A stretch of DNA of 44,483 bases from a virus (taxonomy: Duplodnaviria; Caudoviricetes), in the IMG/VR virus record IMGVR_UViG_3300032257_000028, positions 1 to 44,483 of that record. One strand, given 5' to 3'. Positions 1,338-41,551 of the stretch are shown piece after piece. The notes under the pieces were generated by a model. It made no database searches and was not told where the DNA came from. It saw only the letters and a program-made list of their open reading frames with translations. A program made the position numbers and the translations under genes. Each line of letters starts with the position of its first letter. The stretch's first letter is position 1.

Positions 1338-1834
1338 AGGTCTACATCGCATCGAGCCTCGGAAATGTTGCCACCGTGCAACGACTCCGGGACCTGCTCG
1401 TGAGCCTCGGCCACGAGATCACCCACGACTGGACCGTGGTGGAGCCTGGCCACGCCAACGACCCTCGGGCCGCCGAGCATCCGGGGTTTCCTGACTCGAC
1501 TGATCCGATATCGATCACGCTCGAGGACCGTGCGGATGCCGACATCGAGGGCGTGGTGTCTGCCGATGCGCTCATCGCCATCCTGCCCGGCGGCGTGGGC
1601 ACCCACACCGAGCTCGGGGCCGCCCTGGGCTGGAACCGGTGCGCGGGCGACAGCTACGGGAAAGAGCCCATCAAGGTCTTCCTGTGGGCAGCTGGCGGGC
1701 TCGACGCCTACATCGCGCCGGGTGGCTATCCCTGCGCGTTCTGGCTCGCGCCGTGTGTGCACCTGGTCGACGGGGACGCGGCGGACATGCTGGCGGCGTT
1801 CGAGTTCTGGGCGAAGCAGAAGGGGGCGTCATGA
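1334..1834 (+). CDS. Nucleoside 2-deoxyribosyltransferase-like protein
   Basis: GTG start after AGGAGG; KVYIASS, DIEGVVSADALIAILP and GTHTELGAALG motifs. Confidence 0.85.
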   Translation: MKVYIASSLGNVATVQRLRDLLVSLGHEITHDWTVVEPGHANDPRAAEHPGFPDSTDPISITLEDRADADIEGVVSADALIAILPGGVGTHTELGAALGWNRCAGDSYGKEPIKVFLWAAGGLDAYIAPGGYPCAFWLAPCVHLVDGDAADMLAAFEFWAKQKGAS

Positions 1835-1876
1835 GCGCCCCAGGGAGATGACCGAGTAAGGCCGGACCATACGGGC

Positions 1877-1918
1877 TATAATGCCTATGAGGATTAGTGA
1901 TGTTTTGGGATTCACTAA
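1877..1918 (+). promoter_or_regulatory. Putative -10 box plus inverted repeat ahead of the lower-GC cassette
   Basis: TATAAT at 1877-1882; TTAGTGA(1894-1900)-N11-TCACTAA(1912-1918). No good -35. Confidence 0.4.
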
Positions 1919-2024
1919 CAGATCAGCAACGAGAAGGGGCCCGGCTCGCGTCTCGAGGCGCACGACCATCCGAGGTAGCCAGAACGCTCGGGGCATGGGA
2001 GTGTGAGTGCGTTGGGTATGAGAA

Positions 2025-2546
2025 GTGAGACGCATACATCGGAGATCGCGGACCACGGCAACAACGAGACTTGGTGCTGCGCGAGATATTTTTGATGGGT
2101 TCAGTCATGGCGATCGGGTGATTGCCCTGGTTGGTGGGACGGCGTCGATGATGGACGTGGTCACATCGGCTGTTGAGGTCACCGGGCCGGCGAGTCTTGA
2201 ACTTGGGACGTGGACTATCAGCATTGATGATGTCCGCACCATTGCTTGGATGCTGGAGAACGGCGATCTCACCAGGGTTAAGGTTTTGGTTGATCGGTCG
2301 TTCCGCTCGTTCCGCTCGTACTATTCGGCTCTTATAGAGCTGCTCGGTCGTGACAGCGTGATTGAGACACGGACCCACGCGAAGTTCGCGATCTTGCGTA
2401 ATAATGCGTGGAATGTGGCAATCAGGTCGTCTATGAACGCGAACAAGAACACGAGATGGGAACAGGTAGACGTGGATGATGATGCAGGCATATGTGACCT
2501 GTTTTCAGCCCATATAGACGCATTAACAGGGAAAAGGAGCGCATAA
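2025..2546 (+). CDS. Phospholipase D-like (HxK) nuclease-fold protein
   Basis: THAKFAIL...IRSSMNAN...RWEQ matches the single-domain PLD HxK/GSxN/E pattern. Start uncertain. Confidence 0.7.
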   Translation: MRRIHRRSRTTATTRLGAARDIFDGFSHGDRVIALVGGTASMMDVVTSAVEVTGPASLELGTWTISIDDVRTIAWMLENGDLTRVKVLVDRSFRSFRSYYSALIELLGRDSVIETRTHAKFAILRNNAWNVAIRSSMNANKNTRWEQVDVDDDAGICDLFSAHIDALTGKRSA

Positions 2547-2547
2547 A

Positions 2548-3120
2548 ATGCAGTCTCGTATGAAATGGATGAATGTTGGCGATCTGGTTCCGTGGAAGGA
2601 GAATCCTCGGAAAAACGAGCTGGCTGTTGGGCCGGTTGCCGAGTCGATCAAGGAGCTTGGATTCGGGGCTCCGATCCTCGCCAGAAAAGACGGGCTACAT
2701 GTCATCGCTGGGCACACGCGGCTCAAGGCCGCCAAACGGATCGGCCTGAAGAAGGTTCCGGTCGTGCTGCTGGATGTAGACGAGCGCCAGGCGAAGAAGT
2801 TGGCGCTCGCCGATAATCGTCTTGGGGAAATTTCGTCGTGGGACAACGACGGCTTGCGAGCTTTACTCGAGGAGCTCGATAGCGACGGGGAGGACATCGG
2901 CGTTCTCGGATGGTCCGGAAGCGATATCGACAAGCTGTTCGGGGAGATCGACCACTCACTCATGGAGTGGGACGACGGTGATCTTGAGAGTGCTGAACAG
3001 ATAGTCGTTCTGCTGCACACACCGTTCTCGAGCGCGACCAGGATCAGGAAGATGCTCGAAGACGCAGGGATGGTCTACGACCTTCATCTACGGTTCGAGG
3101 ATGGAGGCCAGAAACCATGA
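2548..3120 (+). CDS. ParB/Srx N-terminal domain protein (no HTH seen)
   Basis: NPRKN...SIKELGFGAPIL...VIAGHTRLKAA...LALADNR. Confidence 0.9.
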   Translation: MQSRMKWMNVGDLVPWKENPRKNELAVGPVAESIKELGFGAPILARKDGLHVIAGHTRLKAAKRIGLKKVPVVLLDVDERQAKKLALADNRLGEISSWDNDGLRALLEELDSDGEDIGVLGWSGSDIDKLFGEIDHSLMEWDDGDLESAEQIVVLLHTPFSSATRIRKMLEDAGMVYDLHLRFEDGGQKP

Positions 3121-3701
3121 AGGTCCACAACTCTAAGACGGCCCGGAAAGTCAGCCTCCGCCAAAAGATCGTGGGGGGCATGGGCGCGCTGAAGGTGCTC
3201 GAGCTGTACGCTGGGCCAGGTGAAATGAGACATCAAGCGTGGGTGGATGCCAACAAAGTCACCGGAATAGACGCCGATATGAGGAGCGTTGCGGAGTACC
3301 AAGGCGACACATGCAGGACACTGCGCCACATCGACTTCACCGAGTACAATGTCTTTGATGCGGACGCGTTCGGCGTCCCGTGGGAGCCGGTATGGCTAAT
3401 ATCAAGGAAGTCCGGGGCTTTGCCAGACGACATCGCGGTCTTCATCACGGCAGGCGGGGCGGTTACTTCAATGGCGGGGACATTCCGAAAGGCAGGATGG
3501 TCGCGCCAGATGTGCGACGCGCTTTGCGTCCGGCCAGGAGACCCAATCAAGGGACTGTACGGCAAGAAAGCATCCGCGAATACGGCGGCCAGAATGGTCG
3601 CCGCGTTCTTCGCGGACAGGGAGATCACGAAGGCAGCCTCCGCAGTCGGGGGCGCCTCCGGAGGCACGCTCTACGCGGGCTTTCGGCTCTCAAAGAGGTA
3701 G
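3117..3701 (+). CDS. SAM-dependent methyltransferase-fold protein (TcmP-like)
   Basis: Motif I VLELYAGPG, GIDAD, and FDADAFGVPW (DxDPFG-like); neighbours a DUF5131 gene. Confidence 0.6.
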   Translation: MKVHNSKTARKVSLRQKIVGGMGALKVLELYAGPGEMRHQAWVDANKVTGIDADMRSVAEYQGDTCRTLRHIDFTEYNVFDADAFGVPWEPVWLISRKSGALPDDIAVFITAGGAVTSMAGTFRKAGWSRQMCDALCVRPGDPIKGLYGKKASANTAARMVAAFFADREITKAASAVGGASGGTLYAGFRLSKR

Positions 3702-4540
3702 CCTGCCTTTGCGGCAGGTTTGCCTCCGAGCAACGGCATCTGATGCCAGAGTTTACCTTCGAGGGTGGCAAGTTTGCCACCCCTCTTGATCGCCTTGGTG
3801 GTCCCGCGGCCGCCATGCTGTTTGTGGAAAAATGGGATGCCAGCCGCAAGGCAGGCGTCGCGAAGCTCCTCGAACCACTGAATCTCGGCGGGTCGGGCAT
3901 GGTGTCCAGCCTCACCGCCGGAGATCACCCATCCGATCTCGGCATGAGTCAGTTCTTCCGCCAGGCCAGCAACGCCGGTCGGCGGGAGAAGGCTGCCAAG
4001 GAGTGGCTCGCACGACAGCATCCGGATGGTCTGCCGGTCGCCGGCCATCGCCAGTCCATCCAGCCGAGGGTAAATCTTCTTCGTTCCATCGATGACCTCC
4101 CTCGATTCGATGGATGTACCGGGAAGCACGTTCCCCGGCCATCTACCGTACTCGGCGATGACCTGGTGACTAATGCTCATCCAGCGATCGGGGCGCTTGG
4201 TCAGCACCTGGTACGTGTGCCGAGGCGTCTCGGCCATGGTCTTGAACACGCTGAGAATGAACCCGTCTGGGACAAGAGGATGGAGCAGATCGCTCATCGA
4301 ATTGACGAATACCAGGCGGGGCTTCCGCCACCGCCTCGGCTCGTCGACCTTGTCCGGATGCAGCGTCACATTGAACCCGTTCTTGTACCGAGGATTGCCC
4401 ATCGCCTCCAGGCGACGGGCAAGAGCTGCTGCATAGCAGTGCTTGCAGCCCTGCGAAATCTTCGTGCAACCCGTTACCGGGTTCCACGTTTTATCAGTCC
4501 ATTCAATGCCGCTGAACTCGTCTTTCTCGTTTCTCATCAT
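3671..4540 (-). CDS. DUF5131 / phage Gp37Gp68 radical SAM-like protein
   Basis: IEWTDKTWNPVTGCTKISQGCKHCYA, FVNSMSDL, QVLTKRP, SCEPLLG, WVISGGE, FFHKQ; GAGG RBS before ATG 4540. Confidence 0.93.
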   Translation of the reverse strand: MMRNEKDEFSGIEWTDKTWNPVTGCTKISQGCKHCYAAALARRLEAMGNPRYKNGFNVTLHPDKVDEPRRWRKPRLVFVNSMSDLLHPLVPDGFILSVFKTMAETPRHTYQVLTKRPDRWMSISHQVIAEYGRWPGNVLPGTSIESREVIDGTKKIYPRLDGLAMAGDRQTIRMLSCEPLLGSLLPPTGVAGLAEELTHAEIGWVISGGEAGHHARPAEIQWFEELRDACLAAGIPFFHKQHGGRGTTKAIKRGGKLATLEGKLWHQMPLLGGKPAAKAGYLFESRKPA

Positions 4541-4595
4541 GCACCTCTTGTTACTCAATAAGTATAACACTAACTGTTGGCTTTGGAGGCTGATA
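4541..4595. promoter_or_regulatory. AT-rich divergent promoter region between DUF5131 and terS
   Basis: Extended -10 TGtTATACT on the - strand; TATAAC on the + strand. Confidence 0.5.
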
Positions 4596-5012
4596 ATGGG
4601 CTGTAAAACGCTTTACACGGAGGAAAGGATAGGGCGGCTTTTGCAGGCTATAAAGCTCGGTGCAACCTACCAAATGGCCTGCAAGTTTGCGGGGTTCTCT
4701 TACCGGGCGTTTCGGGGATGGATGAAGGACGCCGAGGACAATCCAGAAACGTCGAAGTACAGAGGCCTTCCGGAGAGGGTCCGTGATGCGGAAGGCGCCG
4801 CTTGTGTTCGATGGCTTGGGCAGATCGAGAAGGCATCGTCGTCGGATTGGAAGGCTGCCGCATGGAAGCTCGAGCGCAGGTATCCGGGCGACTTCGGAAA
4901 ACGGGCTGTCGAGTTCTCTGGGCCGGGTGGCGGCCCGATACAAATCGAGAAGATGCCCGGTGAAGATGACGCGATTGCGAAGTTGATTCGGCGACTTGAG
5001 GGTGAGAACTGA
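4596..5012 (+). CDS. terS: Terminase small subunit
   Basis: N-terminal HTH, WKAAAWKLERRYP and SGPGGGPIQ; GGAGG RBS; directly upstream of terL. Confidence 0.8.
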   Translation: MGCKTLYTEERIGRLLQAIKLGATYQMACKFAGFSYRAFRGWMKDAEDNPETSKYRGLPERVRDAEGAACVRWLGQIEKASSSDWKAAAWKLERRYPGDFGKRAVEFSGPGGGPIQIEKMPGEDDAIAKLIRRLEGEN

Positions 5013-6748
5013 CTGTTCACTTTGATCTCGATGCGTACGACGCGAGTACCTTGTTCATCGCGGAGACATCCCGACGTTCGTTTGCGGTTGGGCTCCGCGA
5101 TCTTCCAAGCGTAGACCGAGAGACGTATCTCAGAGGGAGGTGCCGTTGGCGGGTTGACGAGTTCGCCGATCTCGTGATGCGGCAGGCGCTCGAGCGGATC
5201 GGGCCGGTCTCGGATCCCAACGACATCGACGACTTCATCTATGGCCTCCCTCCAGGGCGAGCTGGACGCCGCAAGAGCACGACCCAGCGACTGCTGATGA
5301 CCGGCCGCGGGGTCGGTAAGACGACCCGGCTGAAGATCCGAGCTCTCCATGGGCTGCTGTTCGGCTGCACGCGGGTCGCGGTCGCTATTGGCGCGTCGGA
5401 TGACGAGGCGATCGGGTGGGTGGACACCATCCGGGGTTGGCTCGAAGCGGATTTGCCAGTGTTGTCGGCAATGTTTCCAGAGCTAATGTTCAGCGCGTCG
5501 AAGAAGAAGATCGCGGTCACGACACGATTCGGCACCTCGTTCCTTCTGGCTCGGTCCTTCACTGGCGCCATGCGCGGGATGAACGTGCAGGGCCGCCGCC
5601 CGGACGCGATCTACCTCGACGACATCGAAGGCGAGGACAAGTCGATCACGGTGAAGGCCCGGGATCGCAACCAGATCCGCCTCACGAAGAAGGTGCTCCC
5701 GCTGGTCCCGCTCGAGGGCGGCGCCGAGATCTGGTGGGTGCAGACCCCGGTCAACTACGACTGCGTCGCGGTGAGGGCGTTCAAGGGAGAGGAGGAGCTT
5801 CGCGGCTGGACATGCCGCCGCGTCCGGGTGGTCAAGAGGTGGCCCGAGTGCGACCCGAAGGGGAGGGCAAGCGCGGGGCTCTGGGCCGAGAACAAGGCGA
5901 TCTACTTCGATGTCGACACCTACGGCGAGGACCAGGACGCCCGGACCGAGGCTGCCCACGAGCACTACGTCGAGCACCAGGACGAGATGGACGCCGGGTG
6001 CATCGTGCTCGACCCTGTCCGGATGCCCATCGACGCGGCGTACCGAAAGCGCTGGGACGTGGGCGAGACTGCGTGGGCGACCGAGTACGAGATCGATATC
6101 CGTGCACCCGGCGCAGGTGTTTTCGAGCCCGACACCTGGCCGCGGTACACGTGGGTGGGCGAGGACCGGGACATCCTCCGGCTGCATGGCCGCGAGCTCC
6201 CTGTCCGAGGGATGCAGCTCTCCGCTCACTACGACCCGAGCGATGGAGGGGACGACGGGGCGCTCGTCATCGTCGGCAAGCTGCGCGGTCGGTACTACGT
6301 GCTCGACGTGCACCTGTGGGAAGGGGCAAGGCTCTCCCAACAGATCGCAGCGATCCCGGATGCGCTCCGGCATTGGGTGAACCTCGGGCTGAGGTCGCTC
6401 CAGTGGGAGCCCACCACGGGCTCGGCGTCGGTCGTCGAGCGGGAGATCGCGACCCGCCTTCGGGAGGCCGGGGTGTCCGTGGCGATTGACCGCAAGCACA
6501 GCACGGAGCGGAAGGAGTCCCGCATCGTGGCGACGCTCGAGCCCAAGGCTTCCGGTGGTCTGCTCGCGGTGTCCGAGGGGTTCCAGTCGCGCCACGAGGC
6601 CCAGATCGCGGACTTCAACGCTGGCCAGCGTGACAACAGAGACGACCTGCTGGACGCGCTTCAACGGTCGATCGAACGCCTGGAGGCTGTCGATGGGGAG
6701 ATCGACGCAACGACCGCGGCGACAGCGCTGCGACGAGCGGGCTGGTAG
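5009..6748 (+). CDS. terL: Terminase large subunit (start may be CTG 5009 or TTG 5051)
   Basis: Walker A GRGVGKTT, Walker B IYLDDIE, nuclease YDPS...D and RDDLLDAL. Confidence 0.92.
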   Translation: MTVHFDLDAYDASTLFIAETSRRSFAVGLRDLPSVDRETYLRGRCRWRVDEFADLVMRQALERIGPVSDPNDIDDFIYGLPPGRAGRRKSTTQRLLMTGRGVGKTTRLKIRALHGLLFGCTRVAVAIGASDDEAIGWVDTIRGWLEADLPVLSAMFPELMFSASKKKIAVTTRFGTSFLLARSFTGAMRGMNVQGRRPDAIYLDDIEGEDKSITVKARDRNQIRLTKKVLPLVPLEGGAEIWWVQTPVNYDCVAVRAFKGEEELRGWTCRRVRVVKRWPECDPKGRASAGLWAENKAIYFDVDTYGEDQDARTEAAHEHYVEHQDEMDAGCIVLDPVRMPIDAAYRKRWDVGETAWATEYEIDIRAPGAGVFEPDTWPRYTWVGEDRDILRLHGRELPVRGMQLSAHYDPSDGGDDGALVIVGKLRGRYYVLDVHLWEGARLSQQIAAIPDALRHWVNLGLRSLQWEPTTGSASVVEREIATRLREAGVSVAIDRKHSTERKESRIVATLEPKASGGLLAVSEGFQSRHEAQIADFNAGQRDNRDDLLDALQRSIERLEAVDGEIDATTAATALRRAGW

Positions 6749-6803
6749 GATAAGGTCGATCTGACTTGTTGTTCAGGTCACAACGACCGCATCGAGGTAA
6801 CAC

Positions 6804-9162: not shown

Positions 9163-9175
9163 CGCTGCTGCGTGA

Positions 9176-9376
9176 TCAGCCCGCCACGCGTACGGCAGGC
9201 GGCAGCCACGACCCATCAGGCTCCGGGGTGTACCCGTGCTTTTGGAGATGCTGGCTGATCGCATATCCGATTTGATCGGCGAGGCTCCGCCGCTGCTGCA
9301 CAGCGAGGTGAAACAGCGCCTGCCTCTCGCCGACGGAAAGATTTCCAGTGACTCGGATGTTGTCTCGTGCGTTCAT
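9176..9376 (-). CDS. Ribbon-helix-helix (Arc/CopG-like) DNA-binding protein
   Basis: RVTGNL strand followed by helices ERQALFHLAVQQRRSLADQIGYAISQHL; extended -10 TGcTACGAT at 9401-9409 on the - strand. Confidence 0.65.
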   Translation of the reverse strand: MNARDNIRVTGNLSVGERQALFHLAVQQRRSLADQIGYAISQHLQKHGYTPEPDGSWLPPAVRVAG

Positions 9377-9430
9377 GCGGACTTACCCCGTTGTTAGCCG
9401 ATCGTAGCACTTTCACGCGGATCCGGCGAG

Positions 9431-9490
9431 TGATGTAGTCTGATGTAGATTGCATCAATCTGATGTAGTCTGATGTTAGTTGATGTATGT
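9431..9490. repeat. Six 10-bp phased TGATGTAGTC-type units (one inverted)
   Basis: tgatgtagtc tgatgtagat tgcatcaatc tgatgtagtc tgatgttagt tgatgtatgt. Confidence 0.85.
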
Positions 9491-13257: not shown

Positions 13258-13260
13258 TCG

Positions 13261-13885: not shown

Positions 13886-14355
13886 GCCTCACCGCCGCCA
13901 TCAAGAACATCTCCAAAATCCACCGCACCCAGGTGACGGTCGGCGTGCAGGGGACTGCCCGCACGACAGCGGATGGGGAGGCTTCTCCGGCGGACCTGGT
14001 GGAGATCGGCTCGACGCTCGAGTTCGGCACCCGAGACGGCCGCATCCAGTCCCGTCCCTGGCTGCGGACCGCGCTGCGGAAGAACGGCGCGAAGTGGTCG
14101 CGGGGCTTCCGGCTCGCTCTCAGTGAGTGGGCCGGTGGCAATGTTTCCGGGGCCATGACCGTGCTCCGCCAGGTCGGCGTCGTTGCCGTCGGCGATGTGC
14201 AGGCCCAACTCCGCGCGGGCCCGTGGGTCACGAACGCGGACTCGACGGTCGAGCGCAAGGGCAGCGATCAGCCACTCGTTGACACGGGCCAACTCGTGCA
14301 GAGCCAGCGCGCCCAGATTGAAGTCCCGGGCAAGGCCCCGCTGGTGGTCGCATGA
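13882..14355 (+). CDS. Neck/tail-completion protein
   Basis: EFGT..IQSRPWLR and NADSTVERKGSDQPLVDTGQL. Confidence 0.8.
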   Translation: MSLTAAIKNISKIHRTQVTVGVQGTARTTADGEASPADLVEIGSTLEFGTRDGRIQSRPWLRTALRKNGAKWSRGFRLALSEWAGGNVSGAMTVLRQVGVVAVGDVQAQLRAGPWVTNADSTVERKGSDQPLVDTGQLVQSQRAQIEVPGKAPLVVA

Positions 14356-17408: not shown

Positions 17409-19008
17409 CCGCGTCGTAGAGCGGCTCGTCGTCGCGATCAAGTACGCCGTCGATCAGACGAGCCTGCGCAATTCTCTGTCGAGCTACACGCAGGTATCGA
17501 GCGCTATCGCTGCGGCGACGCTCGCTGTGGCGGGCTTCACCATCGCCCAGGCTGCCCAGCTCGACGAGGTCGCAAAGACGGCCCGCGCTCTGTCGATGAC
17601 GACCGAGGAGTACACGGCTCTCACCCATGCGGCCAACATCGGCGGTGTGAGCCAGAGCGAGCTCGGCACCGCGTTGCGGTCTCTCACCCTTCGTCTAGGC
17701 GCTGCCGGCGCCGGCTCGAAGGAGGCCTCGGACGACTTCGCCAGGCTCGGGATCTCCATCCGAGACGCGAACGGGAACCTGAAGACCGCCGGCCAGGTGC
17801 TCCCGGAGTTCGCTGACGCCCTGAAGAGTATGAGTCAGGGCGACGCCGCGGCGCTGATGGTCCGCAACCTCGGGCGCTCCGGGCTGACGATGAAGACCTT
17901 CCTCGATGGTGGGTCGGAATCAATCCGCGAGCTCACCGCGGAGGCCGAGGATCTGGGCGTCGTGCTGGACAGCGAGACCGCCGCGAGCGCCGAGCGATTG
18001 ACTGACTCGGTCACCCGCATGTGGGCAATCGTGAAGGGCTTCGGCTTCCAGCTCTCCGGAGAGCTGATGCCGCGGCTCGCGGATGTGATCGACTCGTTCG
18101 TCGGTTGGGCTAAGGCGAACGACGGGATCCTGCGGAGCGGGATCGAGCGGGGCGTGCGCGCCCTCGGCCTCGCCCTTGACTACCTGGCTACCCCGGTCGG
18201 CAAGGTTGCCGCCGGCATGGTCGCCGTCGGCGCCGCGATTGGGGCGGGGCAGGCTGCGGGCGGGCTTATCGGCGCGATGCGGCTGGCGTCTCCCGCGATC
18301 AATGCGGTCGCTACTTCGATGGGCGGACTGTCCGCGAGCATGGCTCTCCCGGTGCTCGGCGCGGTCGGGCTCGCGCTTGTTCTCGAGGATCTGTGGGTGA
18401 CCTCCCAGGGAGGAGATTCGGTCACTCGCCGACTGGCGGCCGCGTTCGGCGTCGAGGATGAGACCGTTCGACTTCTCGCGGGCTCCGTCGAGGTGCTGTC
18501 TGCGGCCTCCGAGGCGATGGCTGCGCTGTTCCGCGAGTCCGCCCTGGCTTCGGTGGATGCGCTTACCTCCGGGCTGACCGGCTTGGCGGGCGCGCTGACA
18601 GGCATCGTGATGTTCCTGCCGAACCTGCTCGGGCTCAAGTGGGAGGACACCCCGATGGTCCGGTTTGGAAACTGGCTGGCGAGCTTCCTCCCGTCGCTCT
18701 CGGCGGTGATGGACGCCCTTGGAGGGGCGTTCGATTTCGGCAAGGCGACGCAGGGGTTCAAGATGCTCTCGCGCTTTGCTGCCGGTGATTCCGGTGTGCA
18801 GCTCAACCAGGACCGTGGAGCCATCAATAGATTCGTGACCGCGCCAGTTACCGGCGTCGCCCAAAGCGCCCGTGAACGGGCCGGCGTCACCGTCTCGCCG
18901 ACCATCAACGTCAACGCGGGCGCATCGAAGGCGGACATCCGCGCGGAGTCGTTCCGGGTCTTCGGCCAGGAGCTCGACATGGCCCTGTCGACGGCGGGGG
19001 TCCTGTGA
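17398..19008 (+). CDS. Tape measure protein
   Basis: Ala/Gly-rich helical protein; FARLGISIRDANGNLK motif. Confidence 0.9.
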   Translation: MAADRVVERLVVAIKYAVDQTSLRNSLSSYTQVSSAIAAATLAVAGFTIAQAAQLDEVAKTARALSMTTEEYTALTHAANIGGVSQSELGTALRSLTLRLGAAGAGSKEASDDFARLGISIRDANGNLKTAGQVLPEFADALKSMSQGDAAALMVRNLGRSGLTMKTFLDGGSESIRELTAEAEDLGVVLDSETAASAERLTDSVTRMWAIVKGFGFQLSGELMPRLADVIDSFVGWAKANDGILRSGIERGVRALGLALDYLATPVGKVAAGMVAVGAAIGAGQAAGGLIGAMRLASPAINAVATSMGGLSASMALPVLGAVGLALVLEDLWVTSQGGDSVTRRLAAAFGVEDETVRLLAGSVEVLSAASEAMAALFRESALASVDALTSGLTGLAGALTGIVMFLPNLLGLKWEDTPMVRFGNWLASFLPSLSAVMDALGGAFDFGKATQGFKMLSRFAAGDSGVQLNQDRGAINRFVTAPVTGVAQSARERAGVTVSPTINVNAGASKADIRAESFRVFGQELDMALSTAGVL

Positions 19009-21409: not shown

Positions 21410-21825
21410 GCCGCCCCTGCCTCGCCCTGGACCCGACCGGCACCCGGATCGCCGTCCCGCTCCGCTACGTCTCGGGCGCCGAAGCCGTGCTCACCAAGGT
21501 CCGCATCGCGCTCCAGTCGGTGCGCGGATTCTGGCCGGACAACACCCAGTTCGGCCTTCCGCTGCTCGAATGGCTCGCCAACCCGGCGACGCCTCTGATC
21601 GAGATCGAGGGCACCGTTCGTCTCATCCTGTCCCGGATCGAGGGCGTGCTCGAGGTGGTGGCCGTGGAGGCGGCCAAAACCGGCGGCAACGTTGCCATCA
21701 CCGTGCGCATCATCGTCGACAACGGGGCTGACGAGGCACTCGTCGCGCTCGTGGGCGACATCGACGACCCGAACAGTCCAGGCGCCTGGTGGGCGCTCTT
21801 CGGCCCGAACCCATTGGTGCCCTGA
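21406..21825 (+). CDS. Baseplate wedge (gp25/W-like)
   Basis: RGFWPDNTQFGLP...IEGV. Confidence 0.7.
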   Translation: MSRPCLALDPTGTRIAVPLRYVSGAEAVLTKVRIALQSVRGFWPDNTQFGLPLLEWLANPATPLIEIEGTVRLILSRIEGVLEVVAVEAAKTGGNVAITVRIIVDNGADEALVALVGDIDDPNSPGAWWALFGPNPLVP

Positions 21826-23554: not shown

Positions 23555-24183
23555 TGCCTACGAAACCGACAACGAACCCATACCAGTGGGCCACGAATCC
23601 CGGCACCCAGGAGCTTCCCTCCACGGGGCTCCAAGAGGCCGGGTTCGCCGATGGAATGCCCGTCCCCGACAAGATCCACAACCACATGTTCGGGACGCTC
23701 TTCGCCTGGCTGGTGTTCCTGTGGGGCGGCTTGCTCGGGGGGATCACCGGCGAGTTGGTATTCCTGCCATCCGTGTCGGCACCTTGGCACCCAGGTCCTG
23801 CTGACACCACCACAACGATCTCGGCGATCAACCCGGACGGAGTAACGATCACGAACAACGGCGGAGACAATGTCGCCGCCGCCTACTGGGCTCACCTGAT
23901 TGCTTCTGGAACAATTGGCAACGTTGACATCGATATCGGCGCCCTGACCACCACGACAGGCAATGCTTCGGTTTCAATCACGATCAGCGGGTACAACGGC
24001 GGGCCAGGCGTCCCGGTGACGGCGACCTATGCGGCAAACATTTCCTCCACAGGCGTGACAACGGTTCCCCAAACCGCCGGAACCGCACCCACAGAGGGGC
24101 CGCTTACCGTACGATGCCAGATTACAACCGGCTCTACCAGTGGTGACCTTGTTCGCGTCGACTCACTAACAATCAACCTCTGA
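23554..24183 (+). CDS. Tail fibre proximal/attachment protein
   Basis: WAT...P...GF...P..NHMF N-terminal motif typical of baseplate-anchored fibres. Confidence 0.6.
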   Translation: MPTKPTTNPYQWATNPGTQELPSTGLQEAGFADGMPVPDKIHNHMFGTLFAWLVFLWGGLLGGITGELVFLPSVSAPWHPGPADTTTTISAINPDGVTITNNGGDNVAAAYWAHLIASGTIGNVDIDIGALTTTTGNASVSITISGYNGGPGVPVTATYAANISSTGVTTVPQTAGTAPTEGPLTVRCQITTGSTSGDLVRVDSLTINL

Positions 24184-29062: not shown

Positions 29063-29385
29063 TGGCAAAGTTGCCACGCTGGGCGCTCATGGTCTGGTCT
29101 GTGGCGGTCGTGCTGCTGGTTGCGCTGCTGGTTGCGCTGCTGCTCACCACGGGCTCGGTTCCGGAGAGGCTCGCGCTCATTGCCGTGGGCGCGGCTGCTG
29201 CTGAGGCTAGAGCTGCACGGAGGTCGAGGCGCTCTTCGCGTGCTGAGCTCGAGCAGCTCGCGGACGCGGACAGGGATGGGGATCTCCGCGCTGAGGTCGA
29301 AGCCAAGCTGGCCGACGCCGGCGATGTGGATGAGGTTCCCCTCGACGAGCTCGTCGACCAGGAGCAGGAACGGGGGCGGGGATGA
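29059..29385 (+). CDS. Membrane lysis-associated protein
   Basis: N-terminal TM segment(s) and acidic tail; follows the endolysin. Confidence 0.55.
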   Translation: MMAKLPRWALMVWSVAVVLLVALLVALLLTTGSVPERLALIAVGAAAAEARAARRSRRSSRAELEQLADADRDGDLRAEVEAKLADAGDVDEVPLDELVDQEQERGRG

Positions 29386-32322: not shown

Positions 32323-32332
32323 TGAAGTTGGA

Positions 32333-33051: not shown

Positions 33052-33227
33052 CCCCTCACCCTCCTCATCCGCCTCAGAAGGCTCGCACTCTCCACAGGGT
33101 CGGCAGGCTCGCCGTCCGCCTGGCGCCTGAGCAGTCGTCCGACGGCGCGGAGAACGTCGTCGATAGACTCGGGCTCTGGCTGTGGTAGGCGGTCGTAGCG
33201 GGGATCGTGGCGGAGGGGGCGTGTCAT
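33048..33227 (-). CDS. 59-aa hypothetical protein (absent from the ORF track)
   Basis: MTRPLRHDPRYDRLPQPEPESIDDVLRAVGRLL...; ATGA overlaps at both ends. Confidence 0.6.
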   Translation of the reverse strand: MTRPLRHDPRYDRLPQPEPESIDDVLRAVGRLLRRQADGEPADPVESASLLRRMRRVRG

Positions 33228-33880
33228 GGCTCACCCCCCGATGCCGCCCGAAGCGCCGCCAAGTCCCCAGGCCACGGGATGCATCCAATGACCACCTGCG
33301 TAGGTAGAGAGCGCTCTACGCCCGCGACCTCGGCCGAGCCGGAGGGGGTGATGGGCGAGTAGCCATTCCGCTCGTGCTCTCCGATGTCTCCCTTGACGAA
33401 GCGCTCCCAGACACCACACTCGTGCATCCGTACCACGTCGGTGATGACCGTCTCGGCCACGTCCTGGCGGATGAGGCGGGCAACGAAGACCCGGCCTGAG
33501 AGTAGCTCGACAAGCACTGTGGACCCTGACTTGATTTCTGTACTCACTGCTTTCCTCCAGTATTCTTTCCTCGACCCCGACCCCGACCACGACCCCGACC
33601 ACGACCCCGACCCCGACACCGACCCCGACACCGACCCCGACCACGACCCCGACCACGACCCCGACCCCGACACCGACCCCGACCACGACCCCGACCCCGA
33701 CCCCGACCACGACCCCGACCCCGACACCGACACCGACCCCGACCCCGACCACGACCCCGGCCCCGACAACTGCCACAACATCGCTGCCCTCTCCAGCGGC
33801 GTACGCCCATGCTCATCCGCCAGTCCCTGCTCCTCGTGCAGGTCGTGATAGACGGCCATCTGATCTGCGAATGTGCTCAT
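33224..33880 (-). CDS. Ser-Gly/Trp/Val dipeptide-repeat protein fused to a DUF6948-like domain
   Basis: 33 hexamer units, then VLVELLSGRVFVARL...VITDVVRM...VIGCIPW; internal RBS and GTG at 33547. Confidence 0.65.
   Translation of the reverse strand: MSTFADQMAVYHDLHEEQGLADEHGRTPLERAAMLWQLSGPGSWSGSGSVSVSGSGSWSGSGSGSWSGSVSGSGSWSGSWSGSVSGSVSGSGSWSGSWSGSGSRKEYWRKAVSTEIKSGSTVLVELLSGRVFVARLIRQDVAETVITDVVRMHECGVWERFVKGDIGEHERNGYSPITPSGSAEVAGVERSLPTQVVIGCIPWPGDLAALRAASGGEP
33569..33766. repeat. Hexamer tandem array (TCGGGG/TCGTGG/TCGGTG on the - strand), 33 units
   Basis: Directly visible CGACCC/CGACCA/CGACAC run on the + strand. Confidence 0.95.
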
Positions 33881-33984
33881 CACTCCTCCATCCGCATCAC
33901 AGCCGCCCACGAACTTTCACCCACATGTGGCCTCACCCACACCACGTCATCCGCGCCATCGAGTACCTGCTTGAGCGGCGCGAC

Positions 33985-34251
33985 TTAGCCAAGCTCCACC
34001 TCCCCGCGCTCCTTGCGGAGCCGCCAGCACGCTCGCGCCCACGCGGTGATCTCTTCTTCGACCGAGCCACCAGGTGCCCGGATGCGCTCGATCAGGCAGA
34101 CCAGGTCTCGTCCGGCTGCCAACACTTCGTCGGTGAACTCGGCGAGCTCCGCACGGGTTGCTTGCACGGCCTGGTCGCGCTCGTGGGTGAGGCGCTCGAT
34201 CTCACGGCGCAGCGCTGCGGTCTCGGCCCCCACGCCTTGCGGGGCGATCAC
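33985..34251 (-). CDS. Hypothetical coiled-coil protein (possibly truncated)
   Basis: GTGA overlap with the ParB stop; the same frame stays open after the TAA to 33880. Confidence 0.55.
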   Translation of the reverse strand: MIAPQGVGAETAALRREIERLTHERDQAVQATRAELAEFTDEVLAAGRDLVCLIERIRAPGGSVEEEITAWARACWRLRKERGEVELG

Positions 34252-35708
34252 GCCGCACCATCCAGCGCTTCGCCACTCCTGGCGCCCTCGACGGACGACA
34301 TGTAGCGCGACAGGGCATCGACGAGCGCATCGGGGCCGGAACCGACCCACGCGGCAGTGCTCTCCCGGTTCCATGCGGAGACCAGGAGATCGAGCACCCG
34401 CAGCGCGTGAGCATCGACCAGCACCTGTCCGGACTCGATGGTGTATCCGGGGTGGCGCAGGAGCTGACCGGCGCTCGACAGAGTCTCTGCGGCGCGCTCG
34501 CCGAAGTCTTCGGGGTTCCCTTGGCAGAGCACGCACCGGCGCATGTAGCTTTGCGCGGCTGACCGGTACCATCCGCAGCACCGGGGGTCGGGGCAGTTCG
34601 CGGTTTCCACGTCCAGCGTACCCAGGCGCTCCCGGAAGGCTTCGCGGCCCTCGATGGAGAGCTCGGCCGCCCGGACATGATCGAGTGCTGCTGCCGGTGC
34701 GGAGTTGATGGCGTCCACCTGGTTGGGGGCCGCCCCGATGTTGCGGGCGATCTCCCAATTGGAGGGCGGGGTGGACGCGATCTTGTCCAGCTCCTCCTGC
34801 CTGACAGCCTCGGCCTGGGCCATCAGGGCAGGGCGCCCATGAAACAGGCCGCCCTTCTCGGTGTGGCGGTCGATGGCGTACTGACCCAGCGAGCTGATCG
34901 ACCTGGCCACCCGCCAGACGCCCATCAGGCCCAGCCGGTCCGGGCACTCTGCGGAGGCAATCGCGGCCTCGAGGTCCTCCACCGTGTCGAGGACCGCACA
35001 TCGCTCCACACTCTTGGGCAGGTCGTCATCCTCGGGCCACGGCCAGGGGCCGTTGGCGAGCTCGTAGAGTCGCTCTGTGATGGCGGCAGGAACAGAGCCG
35101 GTCGAGAAGTAGCTCCCCGCGGCCTTGTCGATCTCCTCGAGGGTGGCGGACAGTCGGATGCTCTCGATGGTGCCACGACACCAGGCCTGATCGTTGAGTA
35201 GGGCCTGCCAGCGCTTCGACGGGATGCCGTCGATGTGCTCGAGGATGGCATTCGTGAGCTGCCCGCCTCGCTTGAGACGGAAGTGCTTGCGGAGGTTGTT
35301 GACCGCCGCATGGCTCACGCCGGCGAGCTCGCCGAGATCCCGGCTCGACATCGCGCACCATTCCGCGTCCTGAAGCAGCGCGACGATGGCCCGTCGCTTG
35401 TCCTCTCGGCTCCGCTTGAGGCCGTGCCTGGCGTTGGCCTTGATCGCGGCGAGCATCGCTTCGCGGCGATTGCCGTCGCGGACGTCGACCTCGACTTCGG
35501 TGAGCTTGGCCTGGCTTGCCGCGTGGCCTCGATGCCATCCATCCACGACCAGGAGCTGGCCGTCGACGCGGAACGCGGTGATGGGCGGGAACACCTCGCC
35601 GGCGGCCATGGCCTCGGCGTACTCATCGACGGTGTCCTGGTCGAGCCCGACTCGGCACTGAAGCGCGGGGTCGAAGACCAACTCGGTGGTGGAAACTTTT
35701 CCGATCAT
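34248..35708 (-). CDS. ParB-like CTPase domain + HTH + Cys-rich C-terminus
   Basis: TVDEYAEAM...FPPI...VDGWHR, ANARHGL, HTH SSRDLGELAGVSHAAVNNLRK, CPDPRCC...CVLC. Confidence 0.85.
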   Translation of the reverse strand: MIGKVSTTELVFDPALQCRVGLDQDTVDEYAEAMAAGEVFPPITAFRVDGQLLVVDGWHRGHAASQAKLTEVEVDVRDGNRREAMLAAIKANARHGLKRSREDKRRAIVALLQDAEWCAMSSRDLGELAGVSHAAVNNLRKHFRLKRGGQLTNAILEHIDGIPSKRWQALLNDQAWCRGTIESIRLSATLEEIDKAAGSYFSTGSVPAAITERLYELANGPWPWPEDDDLPKSVERCAVLDTVEDLEAAIASAECPDRLGLMGVWRVARSISSLGQYAIDRHTEKGGLFHGRPALMAQAEAVRQEELDKIASTPPSNWEIARNIGAAPNQVDAINSAPAAALDHVRAAELSIEGREAFRERLGTLDVETANCPDPRCCGWYRSAAQSYMRRCVLCQGNPEDFGERAAETLSSAGQLLRHPGYTIESGQVLVDAHALRVLDLLVSAWNRESTAAWVGSGPDALVDALSRYMSSVEGARSGEALDGAA

Positions 35709-37669: not shown

Positions 37670-38544
37670 CAGGGGTCCTCCTCTTCGTCGTAGGTGAGAT
37701 CAGGCTCAGGAATGGTTCGCTCGGGCGCGGGGGCCCGCTGTTCTTGGCGGGCCGGGATCGGCTCCCTGGTGGGCTCGACTCCAGCGAGCTCGTCCTCATC
37801 GAAGACCGGGTCCTCGCTGATGGCCGGGAGGTCCTCGGCGTCGATGACGACTCGGTCATCACGGACGACCACCGGCGCGCCGTGCTCGACCGCGAATTCT
37901 GTTGAGAGCAGCTCCCACAGGTCGCGGGACTTCGGCGCGCGCTTGAGGGCGCGATTGATCACGCTCCGGCGCCGCATCTCGTCCGGCCAGTTCTTGTACG
38001 CCGGCGACAGCTTGCCGCGGTTCCGGCGGGCGGAGTCATCGCGGATCTGCTCGAAGTCACGCTCGGTGAGCAGCTCGACGAGCGGGTCTGTCATCCCCTT
38101 GACGCCGATACTTGCCCAGGTGCAGAGCACCTTCCCGCGGTCCCTGCGCAGCTCCGGCTGGTGGGAGATCGTACCGCTGGCGAGGTCCAGGGCGAACTGG
38201 TCGTTTTCGTAGACCACTGCCGAGCGGATGAACGCGATCCGACCGGACCGATAGGCGAGCTCGATCTTCCCCTGCGCGCCGATCATTGGCGTGCACTTGC
38301 TCTTGAACGGGACCAGGAACGCCTGCTGTCCATGACCCCCGATCTCGAGCCCGAGGTTCAGGATGTACAACACCGAGCTGTAGACCGATTGCGGATCCGC
38401 ATTCCGGAGCGTCCGGTTCGACGCGAGCGCCATGGCGACGCTGGTGCGGATGTTCTCCCACGCGAGGATCCCCCGCATGGTCTTGGGAATGACCCGCAGG
38501 ATTGTGTCCTGTCGAGAGTCGAGTAGAGCCAGGGCCGCTTTCAT
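37669..38544 (-). CDS. recT: RecT-family single-strand annealing protein
   Basis: LGLE...QAFLVPF, IGAQGKIELAYRSG, VVYENDQF, WPDEMRRRSVINRALK. Confidence 0.92.
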   Translation of the reverse strand: MKAALALLDSRQDTILRVIPKTMRGILAWENIRTSVAMALASNRTLRNADPQSVYSSVLYILNLGLEIGGHGQQAFLVPFKSKCTPMIGAQGKIELAYRSGRIAFIRSAVVYENDQFALDLASGTISHQPELRRDRGKVLCTWASIGVKGMTDPLVELLTERDFEQIRDDSARRNRGKLSPAYKNWPDEMRRRSVINRALKRAPKSRDLWELLSTEFAVEHGAPVVVRDDRVVIDAEDLPAISEDPVFDEDELAGVEPTREPIPARQEQRAPAPERTIPEPDLTYDEEEDP

Positions 38545-39422
38545 TGGGCCTCCTTGGTGATGGTGAGTTTGTTGCGGTTCCAGCGGACCTTCCCGCCGGC
38601 CCATCGCAGGCCGGGGGCGTCGCCGATGGAGGCGCGAAGGATGTTCCGCTGACGCTTGGCGTCGGCGGTGATGTCGGCGATCACGCGCTCGGTGCGCACG
38701 ATGTCGTCGCAGAGCGCGACCTCGTTGGGAGTGGCGATCCGGAAGTCGGCGTAGCTCTTGCCGGCCTCTCTGGGATGCAGCTCGCGGAGCCCCCGTGAGC
38801 ACTCCGTGGAGTCATCGATCGGCGGATGCTCGCCCTCGATGATGTGCCGGTCCCACCAGGTGGTTACCGCGTCGAGCAGGCGGCGCTCGATGTCCTCGTC
38901 GCGGTGGATGGTGTAGAGCTTCCGCACCGGGACCTGGCGGAAGAAGGCCGCAACGTGCCACTCGTCGACATCCGTCACGGCCATGCACGCCCGGGCCTGG
39001 AGCTCGTAGTAGAGCGGCGGCGCGTCCCAGGGTCGGTAGCCGTGAGCGACCTTGCATTCGACGCCCTCCCAGATCCACGCCGACTGCCCCTTGAAGCAGA
39101 TCATGCCGTCGGGTGTCGTACGGAGCGGGGCAGTCGGGTGCGCGACGGACCGCGACATCGGGGTGACCGAGTCGGCGCCGGCGACATCGGCGGCCCATTC
39201 GAGCAGCGGACCTTCCAGCCAGTGCCCGATCTGCATCTGCGCCGAGCCCTCGTATTCGTCCGGCTCTCCTCGCTTGCTCGCCCAGACGTGCCACTCCCCG
39301 CCCCAGGGCGAGCAGTCCACGGCCGGGTCGCCTCCGACAGCCGCGACGATGCTCGGGATCTGCCCGAGGTCGGAGCCGCCCAAGCCGAGCTGGCGGTCGC
39401 GAAGCCATTCGAGCCGGCTCAC
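38541..39422 (-). CDS. YqaJ-type (lambda exonuclease-like) recombination nuclease
   Basis: WLRDRQLGLGGSD, GHWLE, TPDG, VECK, YYELQ. Confidence 0.92.
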   Translation of the reverse strand: MSRLEWLRDRQLGLGGSDLGQIPSIVAAVGGDPAVDCSPWGGEWHVWASKRGEPDEYEGSAQMQIGHWLEGPLLEWAADVAGADSVTPMSRSVAHPTAPLRTTPDGMICFKGQSAWIWEGVECKVAHGYRPWDAPPLYYELQARACMAVTDVDEWHVAAFFRQVPVRKLYTIHRDEDIERRLLDAVTTWWDRHIIEGEHPPIDDSTECSRGLRELHPREAGKSYADFRIATPNEVALCDDIVRTERVIADITADAKRQRNILRASIGDAPGLRWAGGKVRWNRNKLTITKEAQ

Positions 39423-39625
39423 TTCTGCACCACGAGCTCGCCCGGGGCAGCCAGGGCCTGCACGAGATCATCGCGCAGCTCATCGATGAGGCGGTCCTGA
39501 AGCTCGACCTGCTCCGCCAGCCCCGCGTTCGCGTTGCGCAAGGCCGCGAGCTCGGCCAGGTACTTCTGCGCGACCGCGTACCAGTAGGCGGACTGGGTTT
39601 CGCCGTTGGCAAGGTTGCCACTCAT
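39419..39625 (-). CDS. Small coiled-coil hypothetical protein
   Basis: Coupled 68-aa ORF. Confidence 0.6.
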   Translation of the reverse strand: MSGNLANGETQSAYWYAVAQKYLAELAALRNANAGLAEQVELQDRLIDELRDDLVQALAAPGELVVQK

Positions 39626-39699
39626 CGCCCCACCGCCTTCGACACCGCGACGAGCGCGAAGAGGGACAGGGACAGCACCTCGAGAATGATCGCGTCCAT
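39622..39699 (-). CDS. 25-aa transmembrane peptide
   Basis: MDAIILEVLSLSLFALVAVSKAVGR; TGATG and ATGA overlaps. Confidence 0.55.
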   Translation of the reverse strand: MDAIILEVLSLSLFALVAVSKAVGR

Positions 39700-40013
39700 C
39701 AGTTGCCCGCCTTCATCGCGGCGGCGAGCATGTCTCGCTGGACCCGGGCGCTCCGGTCGGCGTGCCGGAGCCTCATCAGGTAGTGGTCGACCTCGGTTCG
39801 GAGCTGGGCGATCCGCTCCAAGAGGGCGGCGGCGTTGCGGTCAGCCGCTACGAGGTCGGCCGCGAGGCGCTCGTTGTCCGCTTGCAATTCGCCGACCTGG
39901 GCGAGTAGCTCGGAGCGGGAGCGGGGGCGCTCCTTGAGGACGGTGTAGCCGGCGTCGACGAGGGCTTTCTCGGCGGCGCAGCGGGGGCTTGGTGTTGGGG
40001 CTGAACAGGACAT
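39699..40013 (-). CDS. First gene of the leftward operon, coiled-coil hypothetical protein
   Basis: GGAG RBS, downstream of the pL-like promoter. Confidence 0.6.
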   Translation of the reverse strand: MSCSAPTPSPRCAAEKALVDAGYTVLKERPRSRSELLAQVGELQADNERLAADLVAADRNAAALLERIAQLRTEVDHYLMRLRHADRSARVQRDMLAAAMKAGN

Positions 40014-40021
40014 GTGCTCTC

Positions 40022-40084
40022 CGCAAGTTTGTCTTGCGAGACCACTGTAAAGGTGTCCAGTTCTGGCGGCAAGTTAAACTTGCG
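40022..40084 (-). promoter_or_regulatory. pL-like sigma70 promoter flanked by two 17-bp operators
   Basis: TTGCCG-N17-TACAGT on the - strand; CGCAAGTTTGTCTTGCG at 40022-40038 and GGCAAGTTAAACTTGCG at 40068-40084. Confidence 0.75.
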
Positions 40085-40088
40085 ACTT

Positions 40089-40460
40089 TCAGCGCATGAG
40101 GCCCAATCGCTCCATCATGGTAGCGATGATCTCCTGATCGTCCGGCGCAGCCATCTCGAACGCTCGGGCCAAATCGATGGTCCTTGGCGCCAGCAATGCG
40201 ATCTCTCTTGACGAGTTCACCTCGACGAGGTCGACCACAAGCTGCATTCCCAGGACCCGGGCCCAAGAGGCGAACTTATCAATGCTCGGATGGGTCTCGA
40301 AGTTCTCCCATTGGCGTACCGCTTCGCCGGAGAGCTTCGCGCGCTCGATGTCCTCTGCGATCTTGTTGGCCGCCTTCTGGAGCGACCATCCGCGATCTTC
40401 ACGTTTCGCTTTGAGGATCCGCCTCAAAGCCCTGCTTCTGCCTGTTCGTTCCTGCACCAT
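40089..40460 (-). CDS. XRE-family cI-like repressor
   Basis: LKAKREDRGWSLQKAA...SGEAVRQWENFETHPSID; divergent from a cro-like gene. Confidence 0.85.
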   Translation of the reverse strand: MVQERTGRSRALRRILKAKREDRGWSLQKAANKIAEDIERAKLSGEAVRQWENFETHPSIDKFASWARVLGMQLVVDLVEVNSSREIALLAPRTIDLARAFEMAAPDDQEIIATMMERLGLMR

Positions 40461-40482
40461 GCTCCCAATGTATCGGGTTCCG

Positions 40483-40523
40483 CGCAAGTTAGACTTGCGG
40501 GGCTTGGGGTCATCGAGTAGAAC
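40483..40523 (+). promoter_or_regulatory. oR-like operator and pR-like promoter
   Basis: CGCAAGTTAGACTTGCG at 40483-40499; TTGCGG-N17-TAGAAC. Confidence 0.65.
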
Positions 40524-40555
40524 CATCACAAGTATCTCTTGTACGGGGTGTCCGG

Positions 40556-40837
40556 GTGAAGTTCAACACGGTGGCGAACTGGTTCAAAGCTAAGTTGGAA
40601 TCGATAGGATCCCCTCGGGTCGACGATCTCCGAAGCCAGCTCGCCGAGCTCGGCGTGGACGTGTCTCCGACGACGATCGCGAACTGGAAGCACGGCCACA
40701 ACACGCCGAAGCCGCAGCACCTCGCTGGCTTGTTCGAGTTCTTCTCTGCCAGCGAGTATGAGCGGAACGAGGTTCGCATCATGTGGATGCGCGAACGCGA
40801 GTCGGCCGGAACGACGCGGGCCGCGGACGCAGCGTGA
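40556..40837 (+). CDS. Cro-like HTH protein
   Basis: LAELGVDVSPTTIANWKHGHNTPK. Confidence 0.75.
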   Translation: MKFNTVANWFKAKLESIGSPRVDDLRSQLAELGVDVSPTTIANWKHGHNTPKPQHLAGLFEFFSASEYERNEVRIMWMRERESAGTTRAADAA

Positions 40838-41115
40838 ACCCTCTACGGAAACCGCATGATGAATGCGCCGCCGGTCATGCTGCCGCGCTCGGTCAGGCTC
40901 TGCTCGTCGATGGCCTGGCCCTGGGGAGCGACACCGGCGCCTTCCAGCGTCGCCTCGGCGAAGCGCTGGCCGACAACGAGCTGACCCCTGACGAGCTCGA
41001 CGAGCTCGACGAGCTCGAAGAGCTGCTCGGGTGCCTGGCTGATCGCGTCGCCACGATGCGCGCCGCCTTTCTCGCCATGCGGCGCGGAGAGTCGGTGCGC
41101 GAAGTGAGGTCCTGA
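40834..41115 (+). CDS. Hypothetical protein (CII-like position)
   Basis: GTGA overlap; ALADNELTPDELDEL. Confidence 0.55.
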   Translation: MNPLRKPHDECAAGHAAALGQALLVDGLALGSDTGAFQRRLGEALADNELTPDELDELDELEELLGCLADRVATMRAAFLAMRRGESVREVRS

Positions 41116-41189
41116 TGTTCGCCTTTGGTGTGCTCGTTGGATTCACCCTGGCCGTAAGCGGCCTCACCCTTACCTGGTGGCTCGCGTAG
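41115..41189 (+). CDS. 24-aa transmembrane peptide
   Basis: MFAFGVLVGFTLAVSGLTLTWWLA; GAGG RBS and TGATG overlap. Confidence 0.5.
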   Translation: MFAFGVLVGFTLAVSGLTLTWWLA

Positions 41190-41209
41190 CCGCCCAACCC
41201 GGAGGACTC

Positions 41210-41551
41210 ATGTCCAGTTTCCGAATGGAGGTCGGGCGATTGTCGCTCGGCAATATTTCCAGTCAGCTCGAGGAGCAGTTTCAGCATGCTCTTGCCGAGA
41301 TCGTCGAGCACTTCGCCGACGAGACCATCCGCCTTCAGCCGAACAGCCGCTCGGCCGAGGTCACCATCAAGCTGAAGTTCACCCATGAGATCGACTCCCG
41401 CGCGACCTTCGTGACGACCTCCGTCTCGTCGAAGCTGCCGAAGTACCGGCAGGTGAGCCGTCCGCTCGTGCTGCCTCGCGGCGGCGCGCACATCCTCATT
41501 GAGAAGGAAGACGTTCAGGACAACCTCTTCGCGACGCAGGTGGACCAATGA
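41210..41551 (+). CDS. Phage protein, partner of the downstream DUF2303-like gene
   Basis: GGAGG RBS; EVTIKLKF...VSSKLPK pattern. Confidence 0.65.
   Translation: MSSFRMEVGRLSLGNISSQLEEQFQHALAEIVEHFADETIRLQPNSRSAEVTIKLKFTHEIDSRATFVTTSVSSKLPKYRQVSRPLVLPRGGAHILIEKEDVQDNLFATQVDQ

Follow-up and report, generated by a model that had tools for sequence, protein, structure and literature searches.

The stretch of DNA analysed here, IMG/VR virus record IMGVR_UViG_3300032257_000028 (Duplodnaviria; Caudoviricetes), is 44,483 nucleotides long and is called the window in what follows. Its ends overlap by 221 bp with one mismatch, which gives a circular genome of 44,262 bp, and a replication-initiator-like open reading frame (ORF) is intact across the circular junction (positions 43879-44262 joined to 1-349). 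The gene content is that of a temperate-type myophage, with terminase, portal, sheath, baseplate, amidase, RecT, RusA, cI-like and Cro-like genes; no tyrosine integrase was found in the window genome, despite its lambda-like immunity genes. Dispersed over this genome is a short palindrome, YGGMAA-NN-TTKCCR, of which the window contains 11 exact copies and one near copy (at 23916), with no other match at one mismatch or fewer. One of these copies stands in the gene of an orphan protein, P0001, which combines a ParB fold with a helix-turn-helix (HTH) domain. The array and the protein that very probably reads it are the subject of this analysis, and their features are collected in Table 1.

Table 1. 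Palindromic sites, ParB-HTH gene with its domains, and cI-type operators of the window.
Feature	Position	Strand	Sequence	Context or remarks
Site 1	1360..1373		CGGAAATGTTGCCA	codons 10-14 of nucleoside-deoxyribosyltransferase-like gene (GNVA)
Site 2	3766..3779		TGGCAAGTTTGCCA	DUF5131 gene, which is on the - strand (GKLA)
Site 3	5466..5479		CGGCAATGTTTCCA	terminase large subunit (SAMFP frame)
Site 4	9334..9347		CGGAAAGATTTCCA	gap between head-morphogenesis and protease genes
Site 5	14136..14149		TGGCAATGTTTCCG	neck gene (GNVS)
Site 6	18198..18211		CGGCAAGGTTGCCG	tape measure gene (GKVA)
Site 7	21684..21697		CGGCAACGTTGCCA	baseplate wedge gene (GNVA)
Site 8	23916..23929		TGGCAACGTTGACA	one mismatch; tail-region gene (GNVD)
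Site 9	29063..29076		TGGCAAAGTTGCCA	first codons of membrane-protein gene after amidase (MAKLP)
Site 10	35690..35703		TGGAAACTTTTCCG	ParB-HTH gene itself, codons 2-7 (GKVS)
Site 11	39607..39620		TGGCAAGGTTGCCA	first codons of early leftward gene (SGNLA)
Site 12	41248..41261		CGGCAATATTTCCA	early rightward gene, from codon 14 (GNIS)
Orphan ParB-HTH gene	34248..35708	-		486 residues (P0001), inferred binder
ParB N-terminal nucleotide-binding fold	35415..35708	-		residues 1-98; Q17-x-R19, G57-W-H-R60, N92
HTH domain	35277..35408	-		residues 101-144; presumed recognition helix VSHAAVN, 131-137
Putative zinc knuckle	34524..34595	-		C372/C377/C392/C395, conserved in alignments; zinc binding inferred
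Predicted C-terminal homodimerisation domain	34281..34493	-		residues 406-476; from model
Three 17-bp cI-type operators	40022-40038, 40068-40084, 40483-40499		CGCAAGT-N4-CTTGCG	outside the array; lambda-like arrangement around the cI-like gene

The original prediction, which had proposed these palindromes as loading sites of a phage ParB, gave 11 exact copies and the near-match at 23916, and all were recovered with the same coordinates and sequences. Gaps between exact copies range from 1,641 to 7,379 bp, as claimed (1.6-7.4 kb), and the mean site interval is about 3.7 kb. Conservation stops at the 14 bases, with none in the flanks. That all copies are coding holds for 11 of the 12; the copy at 9334, between the end of the head-morphogenesis gene (9162) and the protease gene, overlaps only short unassigned ORFs and thus lies outside recognisable genes. 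Five of the 12 sites are within 45 nt of a start codon according to the gene calls of this analysis, in agreement with the earlier estimate of about half, and a start-proximity test gives P=0.04 against a background of 17% at 60 nt or less. The copy said to cover the first codons of the ParB-HTH gene is indeed there.

This array is a real feature of the genome. Dinucleotide shuffles (100) contained on average 0.73 and at most 3 matches at one mismatch or fewer, as compared with the 12 observed. When synonymous codons were shuffled within genes (1,000 shuffles), about 0.3 coding sites were expected, with a maximum of 3, against 10 observed, the shuffle mean of 1.30 including one count from the unshuffled non-coding site 9334; the enrichment thus survives the codon-preserving control put forward with the prediction. 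An unbiased palindrome scan, which covered all 6+6 families with two degenerate positions and spacers of 0-8 and served as a post-hoc correction, ranked this exact motif first, with a -log10P of 22.6 against 7.6-11.7 for the best families in 12 shuffles. At the protein level, the proteome contains nine G[NK][VILF][AS] peptides where 2.8 are expected, and eight of them correspond to exact sites. The sites are also spaced more evenly than under random placement (12 sites, coefficient of variation (CV) = 0.39, P=0.0008; 11 sites, P=0.003), and no centromere-like clustering at one locus or at the origin was seen.

P0001 is a member of the ParB-fold HTH family by its fold and by its Boxes I and II. 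The ParB fold at its N-terminus is followed by the HTH, then by a helical middle part in which four cysteines are conserved, and finally by a C-terminal domain. The N-terminal fold matches PHROG 1033 (E=1e-14), with profile matches to Srx, ParB and Spo0J. In Box I, Q17 and R19 are invariant and aligned to the QPR of Myxococcus ParB, while in Box II, G57 and R60 are invariant in 40 sequences and aligned to its GERR. The AlphaFold model of P0001 (predicted local distance difference test, pLDDT, 95) has structural matches to Noc, ParB and KorB, the best being KorB 8qa9_B (Z 12.8, root-mean-square deviation (rmsd) 2.9 A, 135 aligned, residues 1-144); the match to 7bnr_A has Z 11.3 and rmsd 2.1 over 96 residues, and helices at residues 101-142 follow the N-terminal fold in the model. 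For residues 150-486, no solved relative was found by sequence and no family was named in Atlas/Pfam searches, the structure search having barely probed this region. Modelled as a homodimer, the same residues score 0.66 versus 0.01 for the best control, with contacts agreeing at 84% or more, a pLDDT of 84 and an interface at 406-476; the mark used for this score is reached by 20 of 30 solved homodimers and by one of 23 single chains. P0001 is hence predicted to unite a KorB-like gate with an HTH and a C-terminal dimer. Its gene is located in the leftward early operon, downstream of YqaJ, RecT and an SbcC-like ATPase and behind two cI-type operators, a position which suggests that it is controlled by cI and transcribed early in the lytic cycle from the early leftward promoter. 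The closest named homologue carries the label Myxococcota.

The motif co-occurs with the ParB clade in other phages. Among the proteins retrieved, full-length relatives of P0001 form a clade of about 65. Of these 65, 23 have the peptide that the motif encodes, G[NK][VILF][AS], ahead of the ParB domain; none of 88 other homologues does. A site is found in the ParB gene, or up to 605 nt before the GxHR codons, at nine of 11 clade loci, five times in the first codons (this count omits L147, which has the same protein as L208, and the truncated L210). Two near-complete phages with a clade ParB bear arrays of their own: G001 (36 kb) has seven sites at one mismatch or fewer where 0.94 are expected (P=6e-5) and G094:C27 (37 kb) has nine where 0.95 are expected (P=8e-7), and in both the top de novo palindrome is their own variant of the window motif. 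Two strict sites are present in each of the partial loci L207-L209, which are weak taken singly. Among the 63 window proteins, ParB is the sole match in the contigs of the other array phages (tblastn, E<=1e-4), which argues that the motif is linked to ParB rather than to the genes for the virion, replication or immunity.

Searches for further members were less productive. A single-protein locus search of viral contigs returned no relative, and a search with the 18-base back-translated motif returned 62 loci, of which one was a clade member already known; the remaining 61 served as negative controls and contained the strict motif once in 818 kb. L205 was discarded as an HTH-only false match (record G006, 0 sites in 42 kb). 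G056 has two matches 28 kb apart with no ParB or array around them; the same genome contains, at G056:C1 ~6812000-6825000 (L248), more than 200 repeats with a 61-bp period, which are CRISPR-like. Two apparent counter-examples, G140:C163 (one near site in 35 kb) and G145:C155, were set aside as uninformative, the ParB gene being at the contig end and the sampled ORFs lacking virion genes.

Shorter relatives outside the clade also appear to carry a site in the gene. In these, a near-perfect 16-20-bp palindrome is found about 53-55 codons past an N-x-x-H-G motif, directly behind the HTH, and palindromes with at least eight of nine pairs just behind the HTH codons occur in 37 of 55 representatives versus 18 of 625 control windows from the same genes. 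Site similarity tracks the similarity of the recognition helices (partial Mantel r=0.41, P=2e-4), while identity of the rest of the domain does not (r=0.02) and the best other four-residue window reaches 0.23; L174-L201, which have a distant HTH type, were excluded from this test except L193, as were six unparsed loci out of 105. The covariation of motif and recognition helix that had been put forward as a check is therefore found. L169 and L172, for example, pair the helix VDHKTV with the site GGGGAA-A-TTCCCC. When helices of the type [ST]H[TAPV], to which that of P0001 belongs, were grouped, post hoc and on data already seen, the window motif was present within two mismatches in six of 11, versus one of 44 others (P=1e-4).

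No arrays were found in this wider family: 30 loci have their own palindrome, three of them with one further near copy, four whole records contain 0-2 relaxed-motif sites each, and of 80 viral family loci scanned de novo, only L005 showed the window motif. In the clade, the site behind the HTH has been lost, one is often present at the 5' end instead, and the site has been multiplied. Other dispersed palindrome families were noticed in L029, L033/L039 and L063 (5-7 copies, -log10P 12-14); those of L029 and L033/L039 are unmatched by any ParB-gene palindrome, and that of L063 has one copy inside the ParB gene. Three comparative tests support the ParB-HTH protein as reader of the sites, as originally proposed, and from them we infer binding itself; it is highly probable that the palindromes are recognised by the HTH of P0001.

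By analogy, P0001 would work most like KorB/OB or BisD/bisS. RK2, the plasmid of KorB, carries about 12 OB sites dispersed over its own mobile replicon, much as the palindromes are over the phage. The further resemblance of the KorB/OB system to that of the phage lies in a ParB-fold gate with an HTH and in short palindromes at which a kilobase-sliding clamp is loaded, a slide of 1.5 kb being described for KorB; it differs by the ParA partner IncC, by the lock proteins KorA/TrbA and by acting on promoters (PMC11790492). The phage system has no ParA, another motif, sites in coding sequences, a 260-residue insert in which four cysteines are conserved, and a place in a phage early operon. BisD of the element ICEclc and HerB of plasmid F are likewise ParB-like orphans encoded by mobile elements, with additional domains, a C-terminal dimer module and roles other than partition (PMC12409273; PMC13370423). 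BisD, which slides about 50 kb, differs by its two sites and its partner BisC (PMC12409273), and HerB is described as binding the host chromosome without a consensus (PMC13370423), whereas the phage has 12 even sites on its own DNA and the chromosomes examined show no enrichment. Chromosomal ParB/parS and Noc/NBS share with it the fold, 14-16-bp palindromes and the G-x-x-R box; however, chromosomal parS sites cluster at the origin together with ParA, and Box III of P0001 differs. Noc has a membrane-targeting N-terminus, for which P0001 has no room.

The nearest published observation is a genome-wide array without explanation in Cluster O mycobacteriophages, with 34 copies of a 17-bp palindrome that is absent from the host, one third of the copies being coding, and these phages encode an orphan ParB-like protein, Corndog gp90 (PMC4351075). 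That motif is different, and gp90 has a canonical-type ParB_N of another subfamily, does not match the clade profile and has no site in its gene, so that it does not follow the rule of a gene-internal palindrome. In Corndog (L251, 2617-23797), 24 Cluster O palindromes occur in 24.8 kb, two of which flank the ParB-like gene 90, with none inside. By analogy, the Cluster O palindromes may be linked to a phage ParB system. In the stoperators of Cluster A mycobacteriophages, too, a temperate phage has numerous repressor sites along its genome. These are asymmetric and oriented with transcription (PMC4351075), while the sites described here are palindromic and tied to ParB rather than to cI. In the literature covered (main texts of mainly open-access papers), no description was found of phage orphan ParBs with palindromes inside genes or across the whole genome.

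The explanation that we favour, with a probability of roughly 55%, is that the palindromes load an orphan ParB clamp which coats and marks the phage genome in lytic growth. The ParB-HTH protein, without a ParA partner, would load at the twelve palindromes, dimerise and close at each of them as a nucleotide-gated clamp, and slide outwards from its site. With a site every 3.7 kb or so, the whole phage genome would become coated during lytic growth and marked as phage DNA. The even spacing regardless of operon structure fits genome coverage, sliding over 1.5 kb or more as for KorB and BisD would cover the circle, and seven of the 12 sites are far from start codons. The purpose of such a coat would most likely be to organise or shield the replicating phage DNA, or to present the 260-residue middle region to a partner. 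Taken by itself, the predicted spreading of a genome-coating clamp in lytic growth is the preferred function, at about even odds. Somewhat short of even are the chances of a further proposal, self-marking, whereby, in a myxobacterial phage lineage, an orphan clamp whose family normally has a single gene-internal site multiplied this site into an even array across the genome within coding sequence and acquired a new effector region, so that in lytic growth a nucleotide-gated layer of protein would form on phage but not on host DNA. In short, the binder is well supported, and its function may be coating or shielding or else global regulation. Guidance of modification enzymes, also raised originally, receives no specific support, since P0001 has no methylase domain and no methylase-like gene of the window is common to the other array phages.

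Several observations weigh against the favoured explanation. Box III of P0001 reads A-N-A-R-H instead of ENxxR: N92 is invariant, but A91 precedes it and H95, G96 and R99 follow. ParB-fold proteins can bind ATP or GTP, 11 of 28 purified ones having bound nucleotide in the study cited (PMC12704722). Five of the 11 helices in the post hoc [ST]H[TAPV] group lack the window motif, and G001 and G140:C163 have no site at one mismatch or fewer near the ParB gene. Evenness of the sites is weak in the two relatives G001 and G094:C27 (P=0.10 and 0.045), L207-L209 hold 2-3 sites per 16-20 kb (P=0.02-0.10), and short divergent regulators might go undetected by tblastn. The mild excess of start-proximal sites suits regulation equally, and the lack of an integrase in the window leaves room for a plasmid prophage. 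Finally, motif clusters are present in G036:C8, G036:C21 and G145:C340 without ParB in the stretches fetched; two of the three contain mobile-element genes, and the ParB-less clusters may represent further fragments of the same prophages. The clusters at G036:C8 1-40000 and G145:C340 29000-50000 adjoin large DarB-like methylase genes.

Long-range transcription control, in which P0001 would act as a KorB-like repressor or a BisD-like co-activator autoregulated through its own first-codon site, is a doubtful alternative with some evidence in its favour. The start-proximal sites, the occurrence of a site in the gene's own first codons at five of 11 clade loci, and the fact that KorB is the closest fold and that KorB and BisD act in this way are all compatible with it, as is the annotation of homologues in cultured phages as StrR-like regulators. 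StrR proteins are antibiotic-cluster activators, and the StrR-like ParB-fold regulators presumably have the same short layout of N-terminal domain and HTH. However, the seven remaining sites are mid-gene or mid-operon and equally spread across early and late regions, site-bearing genes are mostly operon-internal, no sigma-70-like promoter was detected near the one intergenic site (the only region scanned), and no KorA- or BisC-like partner is common to the other array phages. Control of a few promoters would, moreover, not require even spacing.

Partition of an extrachromosomal prophage, with the array as a dispersed centromere served by a host ParA or by a ParA-independent route, is improbable. 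Partition is the function of the family, dispersed centromere sites exist in N15 and RK2, and the window has immunity genes but no tyrosine integrase. Yet ParA (Pfam AAA_31 only) was detected in neither of the two records examined, the window and G001, and in 14 of 14 controls, and array-bearing G001 and G094:C27 carry integrases. P0001 has no N-terminal tail ahead of its fold and no (L/F/I)G[KR]G(L/F/I) sequence, the motif by which ParA binding has been defined (PMC12704722). As two cI-type operators precede it in the early leftward operon, the gene would probably be off in a lysogen. Given the lack of a ParA, the integration of relatives and the place of the gene in an early lytic operon, a partition role of the array is unlikely; the system is not ParABS, and segregation, one of the functions initially suggested, is disfavoured.

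Still less probable is another reader of the sites, whether the phage cI, Cro or winged-HTH protein acting in a stoperator-like manner, or a host factor. The cI-type operator has GCAAG in common with some half-sites, G036 contains 19 strict sites versus 5 in the control in 7.2 Mb, and motif clusters occur without a nearby ParB. Nevertheless, no regulator of the window is common to the other array phages, helix and site covary as described above, and the 17-bp cI-type operators, correctly distinguished from the array in the prediction, are a separate motif restricted to three places in the immunity region. Among the sequences tested, the array is restricted to phage-like DNA. In five chromosomes carrying clade ParBs, which are not proven hosts, the strict motif occurs 2-19 times per 7-8 Mb versus 250 per Mb in the phage, and the core motif is missing from 45 of 61 genomes of the same order, again not proven hosts, with 32 matches versus 18 in the control; the possibility that the motif is equally dense in bacterial chromosomes is thus not borne out. 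Chance or a codon or peptide bias, which the sharing of one reading frame by eight of the 11 coding sites and the presence of the site 2 peptide GKLA in 11 of 118 other DUF5131 homologues (12 of 119 when that of the window is counted) might suggest, is refuted by the synonymous-codon shuffles, and the de novo ranking, the even spacing and the recurrence in unrelated phages leave it practically no weight. As GKLA is common among DUF5131 homologues, the search for a protein change forced by site 2 had a neutral outcome.

Some other features of the genome were noted. Ahead of the terminase, positions 2548-4570 form a cassette of the antisense DUF5131 gene, a methylase-like ORF and, at 2548-3120, another gene with a ParB fold, the second of the window. 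Iteron-like palindromic repeats (GTGCCACAGTGGCAC) accompany the initiator-like ORF that spans the junction, and the C-terminal tail of its product is helix-hairpin-like. An extended low-complexity repeat of Ser-Gly-Trp/Val (32.7 copies of 6 bp) is found in the gene at 33224-33877.

Phages and prophages frequently encode orphan ParB-fold proteins, most of which have no known function or DNA target (PMC12704722). The ParB-HTH domain is represented by 16,607 cluster representatives at E<=0.001, and phage homologues in the database bear the StrR-like label. The DNA target of an orphan ParB may be readable from sequence, and a helix-to-site code predicts the outcome of swaps; if this holds, gene-internal palindromes would provide such a code for thousands of uncharacterised phage ParBs. 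The clamp idea would also suggest a possible explanation for arrays published without one, such as the Cluster O palindromes, for which a cultured phage exists. Should the genome coat be real, a ParB clamp would be used independently of ParA during lytic infection, and a phage would have a new means to tell its own DNA from that of its host.

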